A stretch of 64,000 bases of DNA from contig CAWVEX010000045.1 in NCBI GenBank assembly GCA_963928415.1, forward strand, positions 587 through 64,586, given 5' to 3'. Numbering within the stretch: the first letter of the stretch is position 1; every line of letters begins with the position of its first letter. The stretch comes from Bacillota bacterium (lineage in GTDB: Bacteria > Bacillota > Clostridia > TANB77 > CAG-508). Of the stretch, positions 15,979-31,045 are shown piece by piece. A program made the position numbers and the translations under genes. The notes below the pieces were generated by a model that was not told where the DNA came from, made no database searches, and saw only the letters and a list, made by a program, of their open reading frames with translations.

Positions 15979-16335
15979 ATGAAAAAGTATTCTAATGAAA
16001 AAGGTGTAACATTAATTGTTTTAGCAATAACAATAGTAGTTCTATCTATAATTGCAGGTGTGGTAATATCATTTAATTATAATGATAATGCAGTTAAAAA
16101 TATAGCTGAAGACAAAAAAGAAGAAACTGAAAAAATGCTTATTTTAGAAAGTATAAAATTAAACCTTGTAGAAAATCCACCTGAAAATTATGAGAATTTA
16201 ATCAGCTATTTAAATAATTATGGAAAAATTGAAAATGAAGATGATGAAAATAACGCTATTTTAATTACTAATCAAGGAAATTATGAAATATATGTAAAAG
16301 ATATTTGGAATATAAATAAGCAAAATATAGATTAA
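15979..16335 (+). CDS. Type IV pilin/pseudopilin-like protein. It has a prepilin-type N-terminus, EKG|VTLIVLAITIVVL, in which valine replaces the usual glutamate at position +5.
   Basis: A short basic leader is followed by Gly and a hydrophobic helix. 118 aa; RBS GAAGGAGG. It is the first gene of the Tad-like operon. Confidence 0.5.
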   Translation: MKKYSNEKGVTLIVLAITIVVLSIIAGVVISFNYNDNAVKNIAEDKKEETEKMLILESIKLNLVENPPENYENLISYLNNYGKIENEDDENNAILITNQGNYEIYVKDIWNINKQNID

Positions 16336-16465
16336 ATAAAGTCAAATATTACAAATATTACAAAAATATTAAAAAAAAGTAATAATAGACAAAAATATTG
16401 TTTTTATTTGTTCTATGATATAAAATTTAAAAGAATATTTAAATAAGTTTAAGGAGGAAATCGCA

Positions 16466-17401
16466 ATGGCAACAATGAATCCATTGGAAAGAAAAGCAAG
16501 GAATTCGTTTATAAAAGGAGCAATTTTAGCTGGATTAATAGGATTAATTTTTATAATCATTTTAGGAATAATAATTATGAGAATGAGAGGAGAAGAGCAA
16601 GCAAGATTAGATGCTCAAAAAAATGTATATGTATTAAGAGGAGCTGTACAATCAGGTACAGTGTTAACTCAAGATATGTTTACAACTGTTGGAGCAGATG
16701 CTAATGTAGCACCTAGTGATGCTTTAACAGCAAGTGTATACAATACACTAGCTTTCGATGAAGAAGGTAATCCATTAGAGATTGTTGCAAAAATAGATAT
16801 AGCAGCAAATACAATAGTAACAGCTAGTATGATAACAACTTCAGATAATATAAATACTGATGATGTAAGAGAAGAAGAATATAATATGATATCACTTCCA
16901 GCAGATTTAGAAACTGGAGATACTGTAGATGTAAGATTAAGAATGCCTGATGGAACTAACTATATAGTTGTATCTAAAAAGAAAGTTACAGTATTAGATA
17001 ATGCAGGTATTCCATCTGTAAATACAATTTCATTAGAACTTTCAGAAGGAGAAATTCTTATGATGAGTAATGCAATTGTAGAAGCATATATGATGGAAGG
17101 AAGCAGATTATATTTAACAAGATATGTTGAACCTGGTATGCAAGCAGGAGCAATTACAACTTATGTACCAAATGGAGAAGTTCAAAACTTAATTGCTCAA
17201 AATCCAAATATAGTTAATGAAGCTAAACAAGAATTAATTAACAGAATAAATAATTATGCAGGATTAAACAGAACAAATATAAATGATGAGTTAAATACTA
17301 TAGATCCTGAAGATAGAACAGATGCTGTAACTAGTGGTACTACAACAGAAAATAGTGATGCACAAGATGCTAGACAAAGTTACTTAGATTCTATGCAATA
17401 A
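16466..17401 (+). CDS. CpaB/RcpC-like Flp pilus assembly protein (N-terminal TM plus an SAF-like domain).
   Basis: A TM segment is followed by VYVLRGAVQSGTVLTQDMFTTV, an SAF-like motif. Position and size match CpaB. Confidence 0.55.
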   Translation: MATMNPLERKARNSFIKGAILAGLIGLIFIIILGIIIMRMRGEEQARLDAQKNVYVLRGAVQSGTVLTQDMFTTVGADANVAPSDALTASVYNTLAFDEEGNPLEIVAKIDIAANTIVTASMITTSDNINTDDVREEEYNMISLPADLETGDTVDVRLRMPDGTNYIVVSKKKVTVLDNAGIPSVNTISLELSEGEILMMSNAIVEAYMMEGSRLYLTRYVEPGMQAGAITTYVPNGEVQNLIAQNPNIVNEAKQELINRINNYAGLNRTNINDELNTIDPEDRTDAVTSGTTTENSDAQDARQSYLDSMQ

Positions 17402-17448
17402 AATTTAAAAAGTAATCCAAATGATTAAAAAAATGAAAGGAACTTACA

Positions 17449-18129
17449 GTGGAACAAATAGGTTTTGTTGGAGTAAATGACAAAAAAGATTTTTTGCTAA
17501 ACATAGCAAAAGTTATATCAAAATTAAATAAAAGTGTATTAATTGTTGATAGTACAGTTATGCAAAGACTAAGATACTTAATACCAAAGGTGTCATCTAC
17601 TCCTACATATGTAAGTGAGTATGACGGAGTAGATGTAGCCGTTGGATTTATGAATCTAATGCAAATAAGTTCATATTTAGGTATGCCAAACTTGAATTAT
17701 GATTATGTACTAATAGATACAGATAATCCTCAGACATTTAATTCTTTTATGGTACAAAACTCAAAAAGAAATTTCTTTTGCACATCATATGATGAATTTG
17801 AACTTCAAAGAAGTTTGGAGATACTAGGAACATTGAGAACACAAATTAATTTAACTAAAGTTATAATATCATCTGATTTAAATAATAAACATGATGAATA
17901 TTTAAATCATTTATTAGAAAATTATCCAGTAGCATGGAGCAAAGAAATTATAGAAATAGCTGATACTGATGAAGATAGAAATGCAACACTTACAAATCAG
18001 CTTACTAAACAAATCAGCATTAAGAATTATTCATCGATTTATAAGGATGGATTAGAATATTTAATATCACTGATATTAGAGGGGCTTATACCTCAAGGTG
18101 ATATTAGAAGAATTATTAGGAGAAAGTAG
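17449..18129 (+). CDS. Degenerate MinD/ParA-fold protein (pseudo-ATPase, lacking a Walker A P-loop).
   Basis: IGFVGVNDKKDFLLNIAKVISKLNKSVLIVD aligns to the ParA N-terminus, but the KGGxGKT P-loop is replaced. The Walker-B-like YDYVLIDTD is retained. GTG start with an RBS. Confidence 0.5.
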   Translation: MEQIGFVGVNDKKDFLLNIAKVISKLNKSVLIVDSTVMQRLRYLIPKVSSTPTYVSEYDGVDVAVGFMNLMQISSYLGMPNLNYDYVLIDTDNPQTFNSFMVQNSKRNFFCTSYDEFELQRSLEILGTLRTQINLTKVIISSDLNNKHDEYLNHLLENYPVAWSKEIIEIADTDEDRNATLTNQLTKQISIKNYSSIYKDGLEYLISLILEGLIPQGDIRRIIRRK

Positions 18130-28727: not shown

Positions 28728-28799
28728 AATGGTTACTCTAATTATAGAGTAGCCTTTTTATTATCTACTCTAATTTGAATTTGAGGAAGGAATAATAAA

Positions 28800-29837
28800 A
28801 TGAAAAAGAAAATTATATCCATTATTTTATTAACTATTTGCTTAACTATGTATATTAATTTGCTTGGTATTGAAAATAAGCTTTACTTACAAACAGTCAG
28901 TGCACAAACAAAAAGGTATGTAAATCCAATAGGAAGAACAGTAGGATTAAAATTATATACTAATGGAGTATTAGTTGTTGGTATGTCAGAAATAGATGGA
29001 GTAGATGGAAAAAAATATAAACCATATGATGACTCAGGAATAAAAGAGGGAGATATGATTAAAGAAATTAATGGAAAAGAAATAAGTAATACTCAAGAAT
29101 TGATTAATATTGTTAACAACTCAAATGGAAAAGAGATATCTATTAAATATGAAAGAAATGAAGAACTTATATATACAAGTATAACACCAATAAAAGGTAG
29201 AGATGGAAAATATATGCTAGGACTTTGGGTAAGAGATGCAGCAGCTGGAATAGGTACTCTTACTTATTATGAAGAAGCTACTAAAACATTTGCAGCACTT
29301 GGACATGGAATAACAGATGTAGATACAGGAGAATTGTTAAATATTTCAAATGGGGAATTAGTAACTACACAAATTGTATCAATAGTAAAAGGTGTTAAAG
29401 GCAGAGCGGGAGAGATAAGAGGAATAATAGATAATGGGATAAAGATTGGAGAAATTGAGAGTAATACGAATATAGGTATATATGGAAAAGCAACTAATAT
29501 TGATTTTATTAATTCAATTAAACAAGATGAAGTGGAAGTAGCAAGGAGAAATGAAATACAAACTGGAGAAGCCACAATAATATGTCAACTTGAAAATAAT
29601 AGAGTAGAAAAATACAAAATTAACATAAAAAAAATATACAAAAATTCACAAGATAATAAAAGTATGCTTATTGAAATAACTGATGAAAATCTTATTGCAA
29701 AAACAGGAGGAATAATACCAGGAATGAGTGGAACACCAATTATACAAAATAATAAATTTATAGGAGCTATAACTAATGTACTTTTAAATTCACCTAAAGA
29801 GGGATATGCTATATTTGCTGATATGATGATGAAGTAA
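28800..29837 (+). CDS. SpoIVB-type S55 serine peptidase (PDZ plus peptidase domain).
   Basis: The motifs LGLWVRDAAAGIGTLTYY, ALGHGITD and the catalytic-Ser motif GMSGTPI are present, with an N-terminal signal/anchor. Confidence 0.8.
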   Translation: MKKKIISIILLTICLTMYINLLGIENKLYLQTVSAQTKRYVNPIGRTVGLKLYTNGVLVVGMSEIDGVDGKKYKPYDDSGIKEGDMIKEINGKEISNTQELINIVNNSNGKEISIKYERNEELIYTSITPIKGRDGKYMLGLWVRDAAAGIGTLTYYEEATKTFAALGHGITDVDTGELLNISNGELVTTQIVSIVKGVKGRAGEIRGIIDNGIKIGEIESNTNIGIYGKATNIDFINSIKQDEVEVARRNEIQTGEATIICQLENNRVEKYKINIKKIYKNSQDNKSMLIEITDENLIAKTGGIIPGMSGTPIIQNNKFIGAITNVLLNSPKEGYAIFADMMMK

Positions 29838-29986
29838 AATATATTAAATTTAAATAAGTTTGATATATAATAAAAAATAGTATGAAATTTTTTTACTAAA
29901 TCTATATTGATTATATGTTTAAGATTGTATATAATTATTGTAATAAATAAAAAACATTAGATAAAGAGAAAAGGAATTAAACAATT

Positions 29987-31045
29987 ATGAAAAATATAAA
30001 AAAACACTATATAAAAAATATTTACAAAGAAAATGGATTTAGTTTAATAACAGCTATATTATTAGTTATAATTATATTAATTTGTTTTATTATTTATGTA
30101 GCATTTAATAATGGTAATAATATAAATATAGATTATGAAAATTATTTTGAAGAAGAATTATCTAGTACAGATAATATTGCTTTAAGATACTATTATAATC
30201 AATTAAATAAGCCTGAGCAAATAATGTATACAACAATGTTAGAAAATATAGATTGCCTAAAAAATGGGACAGATCCTATAAAATTTCCTTCTAGTATAAG
30301 TGATAGTATAATAGAAATTGGTGGAAATGTTGATGATAATTATTTTCAATCAGCTTGGGATGCTTTGTCATTAGATAATTTGAATTTATTTTACATTGAT
30401 ACAAGTAATTTATCTATATCTACAAGAACTTCACAGTTTTTAAGTTACAAATCATATGGGTTTACATTATACCCACAAACAGGAAAAACATATTATAATT
30501 CATTTTTTACAAATAGAGTACAGATAGATGAAGCATTAGAAGAACTTGAAAATATAGCAGATGATATAATAAAGAATGCTAAAGGTTCAAGATATAATAA
30601 AATATTATATGTTCATGATTGGATAGTAGATAATATAGATTATGACATAAATGATACTGATAATAATGATAATATTTATGGAGCTTTTATAAATAAAAAA
30701 GCAATTTGTGAAGGATATGCAGAAAGTTTTAAATATTTACTAGATAAAATGAATATACCTTGCGTACTTGTATATGGAAATGGTATAGAAGATAATGGTA
30801 ATCAAGAGGCACATGCTTGGAACTATGTATTAATGGAAGATGGAAAGTGGTATGCTGTAGATACTACTTGGGATGATCCAATATATGAAGGTGGAGGAAT
30901 TGTAATTAATCAAAATAAATATAGATACCAATACTTTTTAAAGGGAGCAGAAACATTTAATCAAAAACATATAAATGATGGAGATGTATCAGGCACAGGA
31001 CAAAATTTTGAATATCCTGAACTTTCAATAAATGATTATAAATAA
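29987..31045 (+). CDS. Membrane-anchored transglutaminase-like cysteine protease/crosslinking enzyme.
   Basis: A Cys-His-Asp triad is visible as AICEGYAESF ... EAHAWNYV ... AVDTTWDD, with an N-terminal TM. Confidence 0.75.
   Translation: MKNIKKHYIKNIYKENGFSLITAILLVIIILICFIIYVAFNNGNNINIDYENYFEEELSSTDNIALRYYYNQLNKPEQIMYTTMLENIDCLKNGTDPIKFPSSISDSIIEIGGNVDDNYFQSAWDALSLDNLNLFYIDTSNLSISTRTSQFLSYKSYGFTLYPQTGKTYYNSFFTNRVQIDEALEELENIADDIIKNAKGSRYNKILYVHDWIVDNIDYDINDTDNNDNIYGAFINKKAICEGYAESFKYLLDKMNIPCVLVYGNGIEDNGNQEAHAWNYVLMEDGKWYAVDTTWDDPIYEGGGIVINQNKYRYQYFLKGAETFNQKHINDGDVSGTGQNFEYPELSINDYK

Follow-up and report, generated by a model that had tools for sequence, protein, structure and literature searches.

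A Tad-like gene cluster of the TANB77 type whose candidate pilins start at an invariant Met-Glu-Asn-Ala and may be leaderless

We analysed a gene cluster that resembles the Tad (type IVc) pilus machinery and lies in a 64,000-nucleotide (nt) stretch of DNA from a Bacillota bacterium (contig CAWVEX010000045.1), the whole of which we call the window. The array spans positions 15979-31045. Every substantial open reading frame (ORF) in it is on the + strand, and the true gaps between genes measure 12-149 nt. In order, the encoded proteins have 118, 311, 226, 279, 634, 691, 158, 186, 141, 151, 238(+84), 173 and 654 amino acids (aa), followed by an S55 peptidase and a transglutaminase-core protein (Table 1). 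The translations show a hydrophobic N-terminus on each of the seven proteins from that of 158 aa to that of 654 aa. The conserved core of the array is the segment 16466-28727, which encodes a CpaB-like protein, two degenerate MinD/ParA-like proteins, a membrane-anchored CpaF-like ATPase, a 691-aa polytopic platform protein and the seven N-terminally anchored proteins. The GC content of the locus (0.24-0.29, ~27%) and its strand skews equal those of the flanks; its nucleotide composition is thus ordinary, and the block belongs to the chromosome itself. We also considered a mobile or conjugative element and rejected it, since the GC content is that of the flanks, the cluster occurs in a single copy per genome (PMC11680825) and the downstream synteny is kept in relatives.

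The first-pass annotation of this stretch had counted sixteen co-oriented and tightly spaced genes, eight of them for pilin- or pseudopilin-like proteins. Orientation, spacing and N-terminal anchoring are as it described; the counts, however, drop to fifteen and seven, since the ORFs at 25255-25971 (238 aa) and 25910-26164 (84 aa) are one frameshifted gene. The two ORFs lie in different frames, and the shift is found near 25915-25935, around GGAGAAAATGG. In all seven relatives with a detectable 84-aa segment there is a single ORF of 271-294 aa that ends in ...TKRVIQYIYI, which indicates that the two ORFs form one gene. The split is also seen, unchanged, in two contigs of other samples that agree with the window at every position over 14,956 nt; it is thus probably a true feature of this strain or species rather than an artefact of local assembly. 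An apparent intergenic gap of 251 nt at 25972-26222 was rejected for the same region: it is the tail of the frameshifted gene, and the only long "gap" of the locus is thereby removed. Thus, one gene of the original count is the tail of its neighbour, and three more (those for the 118-aa protein, the S55 peptidase and the transglutaminase) lie outside the core.

Table 1. Features of the array and its hairpins, with positions in the window. MENA, start with Met-Glu-Asn-Ala; counts of loci refer to the 80 related loci described in the text.
Feature	Position	Strand	Basis
118-aa prepilin-like protein (MKKYSNEKG/VTLIVLAITIVVL...), accessory, non-core	15979..16335	+	homologue in 7/80 loci
CpaB/RcpC-like protein (311 aa), one transmembrane helix and SAF domain	16466..17401	+	SAF 21.5 bits against a cut-off of 21; 76/80 loci, same position
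TadZ-like degenerate P-loop protein (226 aa)	17449..18129	+	78/80 loci
CpaE/MinD-ParA-like protein (279 aa)	18142..18981	+	80/80 loci; Walker lysine lost in this window (ETGQT)
CpaF/TadA-like secretion ATPase (634 aa)	19030..20934	+	N-terminal membrane anchor and ~270-aa N-terminal region without family match
Polytopic membrane protein (691 aa), presumed fused TadC/TadB-type platform	21018..23093	+	modest fold similarity only
MENA-type pilin-like protein 1 (158 aa, MENASRALIIAG...)	23129..23605	+	translation and N-terminal motif statistics
MENA-type pilin-like protein 2 (186 aa, MENASKALIIAG...)	23621..24181	+	translation and N-terminal motif statistics
141-aa protein, signal-peptide-like N-terminus (MKRYLILIIIVIIAITS...)	24237..24662	+	homologue in 74/80 loci
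MENA-type pilin-like protein 3 (151 aa)	24745..25200	+	
MENA-type pilin-like protein 4 (MENATEAFKMGF...)	25255..26164	+	frameshift-split into 238-aa and 84-aa ORFs
N-terminally anchored protein (173 aa, MNDIVITVIV...)	26223..26744	+	70/80 loci, median identity 45%
N-terminally anchored protein (654 aa, MKLQQLALIF...), last gene of the conserved unit	26763..28727	+	65/80 loci, median identity 34%, length variable
Terminator-like hairpin and T-run	28731-28754	+	immediately 3' of the 654-aa gene
SpoIVB-type S55 peptidase with PDZ domain, conserved neighbour	28800..29837	+	TIGR02860 350.9 bits against a cut-off of 305.25
Transglutaminase-core protein, lineage-specific insertion, non-core	29987..31045	+	Transglut_core E 3.9e-15; 7/80 loci
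Strong terminator-like hairpin, closes the co-oriented block	31057-31096	+	18-pair stem

A pilus gene cluster has been described in TANB77, an uncultured order of gut Clostridia (Kim et al., 2024, Nat Commun 15:10726; PMC11680825). According to that study, 122 of the 129 species examined carry 10-14 conserved genes in one copy in this order, which is a clade of reduced genome size. Twelve genes were annotated there as CpaB, TadZ, CpaE, TadA with one transmembrane helix, a TadC/TadB fusion with eight transmembrane helices and seven "pilin-like" proteins, with lengths of 358, 231, 280, 640, 693, 165, 170, 143, 146, 237, 178 and 621 aa. These annotations rest on AlphaFold and Foldseek; no pilus was observed, and the only experimental test, an immunological one, addressed the last protein, "pilin 938", as a TLR4 agonist (PMC11680825). 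The twelve core genes of the window agree with this cluster gene for gene in order, roles, topology and size, the lengths being near-identical and the last protein having ~620-650 aa in both. The window locus is nearly certainly the published TANB77 cluster, and our 654-aa protein is the counterpart of "pilin 938" by length and position. No difference is essential: in the window, the counterpart of gene 936 is frameshifted, and the cluster is flanked by two additional genes, a prepilin-like one on its upstream side and one for a transglutaminase on its downstream side. A term search of the main text of PMC11680825 returned no mention of leader peptides, cleavage, peptidases or sporulation, and the later papers on the TANB77 cluster that a literature search recovered are reviews. 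The locus had been called a distinct, poorly described machine and not a textbook Tad locus. It is indeed strongly divergent while still Tad-like, and "poorly described" is fair, yet the arrangement was already published. The gene arrangement is already known; what looks undescribed is that the proteins we term MENA proteins start directly at an invariant Met-Glu-Asn-Ala.

One scan of species-representative genomes showed that at least 583 of them encode a close relative of the ATPase. As a comparison set we used 80 related loci, all from gut or rumen metagenome-assembled genomes labelled Clostridia, Clostridium or Bacillota, in which every protein of the window was searched for by tblastn. 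The gene order from the CpaB-like gene to the 654-aa gene is identical in these loci wherever the contig extends. Median identity over the 80 loci is 81% for the ATPase, 63% for the platform and 34-45% for the other cluster components, compared to 65% for the adjacent MurC. For an accessory system, an ATPase that is better conserved than MurC is unusual, and its family-less N-terminal ~270 residues are conserved equally. The genes for the 118-aa protein and the transglutaminase, as well as the upstream genes for VanZ, SPFH and MgsA proteins, are common to just 7-10 close relatives among the 80 loci, the count for the 118-aa, transglutaminase and VanZ genes being 7-9.

The ATPase is the component whose affiliation is clearest. 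Its only matches among PDB sequences are to CpaF (8rkd, 8rjf, 9e24; E 1.6e-8, residues 271-538), and its best NCBIfam model is the TadA-type TIGR03819 (E 2.9e-9), the ComGA model being much weaker (E 2.9e-4). Against the Pfam family T2SSE it reaches 23.8 bits, just under the cut-off of 24.9. Its sequence has a Walker A motif (GEQGCGKTT, residue 378) and a His box (residue 475), and homologues also conserve the hydrophobic N-terminus. The description of a CpaF-like ATPase of non-canonical architecture is thus borne out by the sole PDB match, the best-scoring models and the N-terminal membrane anchor.

The situation is different for the 691-aa platform protein. Neither Pfam, NCBIfam nor a search of PDB sequences with a 32-sequence family profile gave a T2SSF signal, and T2SSF was absent from all 32 family members in a Pfam scan at E <= 1. 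Comparison of the two halves of the protein by hhalign detected no internal repeat. A structural model, built from an 18-sequence alignment, is weak (pLDDT 64.9, pTM 0.42), and Foldseek found nothing significant for it in the PDB; the cytoplasmic domain of EpsF was listed with a probability of 0.82 but an E-value of 3.4. The modelled fold is consistent with a platform of the GspF/TadB type, short of proof, and the links to GspF/PilC-type domains amount to modest fold similarity. We therefore only presume a TadC/TadB identity, from this similarity and the published structural claim. The first-pass annotation had named matches of the ATPase and the platform to the E and F families of type II secretion systems (T2SS) as a test of its reading. 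The outcome is split: the ATPase comes close to the cut-off and matches CpaF/TadA, and the platform has no T2SSF signal at the sequence level.

Upstream of the ATPase gene, the 311-aa protein passes the SAF cut-off by half a bit, whereas the CpaB model itself (TIGR03177: E 0.0019, 17.5 bits) stays far below its cut-off of 71; both signals are weak. A search of PDB sequences with this protein gave no match; its counterpart was named CpaB by structure in PMC11680825. The single sequence of the 226-aa protein has no family match in Pfam or NCBIfam, and the one match of its family profile is to MinD (E 0.11), in the N-terminal P-loop part. In place of a canonical Walker A motif this family has the conserved N-terminus G-F-I-G-x-x-D-K-T-D. 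The 279-aa protein yields nothing useful as a single sequence in the PDB search and matches TIGR01007 at E 7.5e-4; its family profile recovers ParA (3ea0, E 0.0024), CapB (4jlv, E 0.0026), CooC and Get3, with E-values between 0.002 and 0.2. Walker A is degenerate in both families. To call the two proteins degenerate MinD-like is reasonable but weakly founded.

Of central interest are the small proteins encoded downstream of the platform gene. An ORF start of the form M-E-N-A-[STA]-K-A-L-I/L-I/M-A-G was found 277 times in 79 of the 80 loci, with 3-5 paralogues per locus. Over these 277 ORFs the position frequencies are 100% for M1, 97% for E2, 100% for N3 and A4, 99% for A7 and 96% for L8, and residues 1-28 are nearly invariant between paralogues as well as between species. 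In the 151-aa family, conservation is complete or reaches at least 90% at 21 of the first 28 positions, and the remainder of the protein falls to ~40% identity. The profile of this family, at E <= 0.001, collects 4854 clusters at 50% identity, indicating a large and diverse family. For 147 of the top 150 of these clusters, the alignment begins at residue 1 on both sides; the other three are apparently aberrant gene calls and have no leader of the Gly type. An AlphaFold2 (AF2) model of a MENA protein consists of a 36-residue N-terminal helix (residues 2-37) followed by a small domain. No fold match was obtained for the model of the 151-aa protein, and a known pilin fold was not found for its globular domain.

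In the MENA ORFs the nearest in-frame stop lies a median of 5 codons upstream, an alternative upstream start exists in just 8 of the 277, and most have a Shine-Dalgarno-like sequence 6-10 nt upstream of the start. The MENA proteins thus have no room for a leader; a Gly cleavage site at a plausible -1 position is also lacking. Cleavage after residue 12, which is Gly in 71%, Ala in 23% and Phe in 5% of the sequences, was considered and rejected, as this site lies inside the hydrophobic helix and Phe occupies it in 5% of cases. Classical prepilins have a variable leader, and their conservation lies in the mature N-terminus. In the MENA proteins, by contrast, conservation runs from Met1 onward, which argues that they are used unprocessed. 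Moreover, methionine aminopeptidase is not expected to remove a Met that precedes Glu, so that the mature end of a MENA protein would be Met1-Glu2. We therefore favour, as an inference from sequence, a mechanism in which the MENA subunits are leaderless and may bypass the prepilin peptidase.

The three remaining N-terminally anchored proteins do not share the MENA start. The family of the 173-aa protein begins with M-[GSN]-D-[TS]-[LV]-I and that of the 654-aa protein with M-K-[IL]-Q-x-L; the latter protein has no family match in Pfam or NCBIfam. The best sigma-70-like site of the locus is at 24192-24221, upstream of the 141-aa gene. No TadE or other Tad-family match was obtained in Pfam and NCBIfam for any of the seven proteins downstream of the platform.

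A six-frame scan of the window locus for the Flp motif G-x4-E-[YFW] followed by a hydrophobic stretch was empty, which together with the short gaps agrees with the earlier statement that no Flp prepilin gene is present. The same scan of the 80 loci gave five matches (L034:951, L035:1860, L038:3143, L057:2499, L068:3461), all of them outside the cluster, 1.5-6.5 kb upstream of the CpaB-like gene; four share G[GV][KEI]MEEFKSGFV.IIG. By eye, from sequence and position, we judged the five to be unrelated to the cluster. Likewise, neither a secretin nor an A24 prepilin peptidase turned up in the locus or in the other ORFs scanned, a search that was confined to the window and there covered ORFs of at least 100 aa outside the ribosomal-protein region. 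The absence of both TadV/PilD peptidase and secretin, as noted before, therefore stands for the ORFs scanned.

A prepilin-type sequence is nevertheless encoded at the edge of the array. The 118-aa protein carries the sole class-III/N-methyl-like prepilin motif of the locus (EKG/VTLIV...) and matches the N_methyl and archaeal Pilin_N families weakly (E 0.026). Thus, the claim that the locus has no prepilin is valid for Flp-type prepilins and fails in its general form. Similar, classical-looking N-termini (...KG/[IV]TLI[AS]LVVTI...), without Glu5, are scattered in six of the 80 loci (L001:457, L002:3384, L003:6090 and 20828, L004:3337 and 7000, L005:18325, L068:15174) in addition to the one at 15979-16335 in the window; in L068 the gene sits within the pilin gene array. 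This family hints that these genomes encode a second set of type IV pilins and hence a prepilin peptidase.

The S55 peptidase and the transglutaminase had been taken for components of the machine, whereas both are probably bystanders. The S55 ORF matches Peptidase_S55 (E 8.9e-78) as well as PDZ and has the motifs GMSGTP and ALGHG with the Ser and His residues. Its gene was detected in 67 of the 80 loci, and in the 52 loci in which this could be measured it lies downstream of the last detected gene of the pilus cluster; its immediate downstream neighbour in most loci is murC, on the opposite strand. A hairpin with a T-run separates the last pilus gene from the S55 gene in 24 of these 52 loci, and the median gap is 138 nt. 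In the window, the hairpin directly after the 654-aa gene suggests that the genes for S55 and transglutaminase are probably transcribed as units of their own. A forespore promoter pattern of the sigma-G/F type (GHATR, 17-18 nt, [AC]AHWHTA) is present in 24 of 47 regions upstream of S55 genes (51%), compared to 3% of the regions upstream of pilin-like genes and 3% of random AT-rich windows; the window's own S55 upstream region has no match to it. The terminator-like hairpin, the enrichment of the forespore-type promoter, the SpoIVB equivalog score and the nearby sporulation genes together suggest that the S55 gene is probably the SpoIVB of this organism, a separate sporulation gene that synteny has kept beside the cluster and not a part of the machine. 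The transglutaminase gene, in turn, is found in too few loci to belong to the conserved unit (Table 1). A role of the S55 peptidase as the pilin-processing enzyme was also considered. We rejected it because the protein is a SpoIVB equivalog, lies behind a terminator and is extracytoplasmic, which would make it unable to remove a cytoplasmic N-terminal leader.

Two further observations concern the S55 gene. A recurring element, GGTTAT[CA][CA]T..., is found upstream of it (in the window at 28728-28799; other examples are L005, L006, L010, L042 and L070) and often forms a hairpin. In some loci this hairpin is followed by a T-run, and in L042 and L070 its 3' arm covers the Shine-Dalgarno sequence. 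The element may be a terminator, a -10-like element or a hairpin for translational control. Moreover, the SpoIVB-type protein has 345 aa in this lineage and ~400-430 aa in most related loci, the N-terminal region being shortened here.

The remainder of the window contains ribosomal-protein operons and the sporulation genes YunB, SpoVAC/AD/AE, SpoVG and SipL. The sporulation genes flank the locus on both sides, at 929-2461, 2569-3174, 9968-11969 (-) and 32704-33060 (SipL, with SPOCS and LysM; YunB; the SpoVAC/AD/AE operon; SpoVG). Their presence indicates that the host is a low-GC endospore-forming Firmicute or at minimum retains sporulation genes, in line with the first-pass annotation, which had assigned the locus to a spore-former. 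A HepT/MntA-type toxin-antitoxin pair lies at 8170-8816 (-) and a gene for a Phd/YefM-type antitoxin at 47363-47677 (-). The stand-alone 327-aa protein encoded at 4000-4983 matches ComEC/Rec2 solely in the C-terminal metallo-beta-lactamase part, with a score under the cut-off of the model; the channel domain is absent. Finally, at 39832-43988 there are ORFs of 136 and 855 aa without family match, except for a faint ParA/CbiA signal in the longer one, after which comes a 363-aa protein whose match to GGDEF is below the threshold.

Compared to the Tad/Flp systems of type IVc, such as Cpa of Caulobacter and Tad of Aggregatibacter, the window has the same co-oriented set of a CpaF/TadA-type ATPase, weakly recognised CpaB-like and TadZ/CpaE-like proteins and a presumed platform followed by several pilin-like genes. 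It differs in that no Flp prepilin, TadV or TadE-domain pseudopilin is recognised by sequence, in that its platform is presumably fused and not recognisable by sequence, in the membrane anchor of its ATPase and in its presumably leaderless substrates; the lack of a secretin, in contrast, is expected for a monoderm. In the Tad loci of monoderms, TadB/TadC and Flp-type prepilins are still recognisable and a prepilin peptidase is retained, and the Tad pili of Bifidobacterium are a further example from a monoderm of the gut. With the Tad loci of Clostridia, Bacilli and Actinobacteria (Denise et al., 2019; PMC6668835) the window shares a secretin-less Tad-type machine in a Gram-positive bacterium of the gut. 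The ComG competence pseudopilus of Firmicutes is likewise a type IV filament machine of monoderms, in which a single ATPase and a single platform are combined with several small subunits anchored by their N-termini, but the ATPase of the window is far closer to TadA than to ComGA, and the ComG pilins have a G/FTLxE leader and need ComC. With type IV pilins in general, the MENA subunits share the conserved hydrophobic N-terminal alpha-helix; they differ in having no charged leader that ends in Gly or Ala, a motif found only in the accessory 118-aa protein. The S55 ORF passes the equivalog cut-off for the SpoIVB of endospore formers and has its domains and its Ser and His motifs. In Bacillus and Clostridium, spoIVB is usually found beside spo0A, whereas the S55 gene of the window adjoins the pilus cluster.

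Taken together, the CpaF-like ATPase, the gene context, the uniform N-terminal helix combined with hypervariable outer domains, and the strong purifying selection on the motor make it likely that the cluster builds a Tad-derived filament or pseudopilus. In the mechanism we propose, the membrane-anchored CpaF-like ATPase would act as a hexamer and drive the large polytopic platform, and the CpaB-like protein and the two catalytically degenerate MinD/ParA-like proteins would position or scaffold the machine. The substrates would be the 3-5 paralogous small MENA proteins of each locus, with their near-invariant transmembrane helix that begins at Met1 and their fast-evolving outer domains. Lacking a leader peptide in this model, they would be drawn out of the membrane and assembled into a polymer with no need for a prepilin peptidase, and Glu2, close to the free N-terminus, would take the role of Glu5 in classical pilins. 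Minor, tip or anchor subunits would be provided by the 173-aa (M-x-D...) and 654-aa (M-K-L-Q...) proteins. That the locus is a member of a Tad-like (type IVc-related) filament-assembly cluster conserved in one copy across TANB77, and that its machine works in this way with unprocessed subunits, is a reading we hold to be rather probable. We are more tentative, and would put it at a little less than an even chance, about the wider proposal: a Tad-derived type IV filament system that dispenses with the prepilin peptidase, the first such lineage, in which a platform recognises the invariant leaderless Met-Glu-Asn-Ala N-terminus directly and a membrane-tethered ATPase takes part, the machine being kept under very strong selection in an order of gut bacteria with small genomes.

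Several points weigh against these readings. The KG/[VI]TLI proteins in the window and in related loci suggest a prepilin peptidase somewhere in these genomes. Moreover, the assignment of the window to TANB77 comes from the match to the published cluster and not from a taxonomic marker, although the low GC content, the 1.56-Mb longest contig with the same ATPase and the origin of all relatives from uncultured gut or rumen Clostridia fit it; no paper was found that connects the named relatives with TANB77. In this uncultured order no filament has been seen in any organism (PMC11680825).

A peptidase acting in trans would turn the locus into an ordinary Tad or type IV system, in which the major pilin is a classical prepilin, such as the 118-aa protein, or is encoded outside the locus, and in which the MENA proteins are accessory membrane components. 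The prepilin-type motif of the 118-aa protein fits this explanation, the KG/ITLI genes in six loci make a peptidase likely in these genomes, and MSH loci offer a precedent for peptidase borrowing (PMC6668835). However, the 118-aa gene is confined to seven of the 80 loci and the KG/ITLI genes are unlinked to the cluster, whereas the MENA proteins form a conserved, multi-copy and N-terminally uniform set without Gly at a plausible -1 position, whose conservation begins at Met1 and not, as in classical prepilins, at a mature N-terminus. We consider this explanation quite improbable. A short pseudopilus of the T2SS/ComG kind that spans the wall and serves protein export, DNA uptake or contact with partner cells in a reduced-genome bacterium is unlikely as well, but deserves some weight. 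It would account for the many different minor-pilin-like subunits without an obvious single major pilin, and the anchored ATPase, better conserved than MurC, would fit a core physiological role; the longest contig that carries the cluster's ATPase has 1.56 Mb, and TANB77 is a clade of small genomes (PMC11680825). Yet the ATPase is nearer to CpaF/TadA than to ComGA or GspE, the locus has no genes of the ComEA or ComFA type, and the extreme diversification of the outer domains, seen in the 4854 clusters, is more typical of subunits exposed at the surface.

SpoIIIAB has the GspF fold, and a match to SpoIIIAB is therefore expected of any platform protein, which counts against linking the machine to sporulation. 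Such a link would make it an apparatus that works with the adjacent SpoIVB-type protease, for example in spore appendages or in an action across the forespore membranes, and the frequent position of the S55 gene behind the last pilus gene and the nearby sporulation genes speak for it. However, the terminator-like hairpin and the gap between the genes separate the two, the forespore promoter motif marks the S55 gene and not the pilin-like genes, the S55 protein scores as a SpoIVB equivalog in its own right and an extracytoplasmic protease would be unable to cut a cytoplasmic leader. We regard this explanation as very improbable indeed.

What remains of interest is the invariant, presumably leaderless N-terminus of the subunits, together with a platform that is unrecognisable by sequence. 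TANB77 is a prevalent order of the human gut, and better responses to checkpoint immunotherapy have been associated with its abundance as well as with the counterpart of the 654-aa protein (PMC11680825), a connection that gives practical weight to how this machine is built and what it displays at the surface. To our knowledge, every known type IV filament system depends on a prepilin peptidase, and a literature search on leaderless pilins yielded no counter-example. If our proposal is true, the leaderless lineage would show that the prepilin peptidase step can be bypassed, and it would provide a natural minimal system for platform-pilin recognition.

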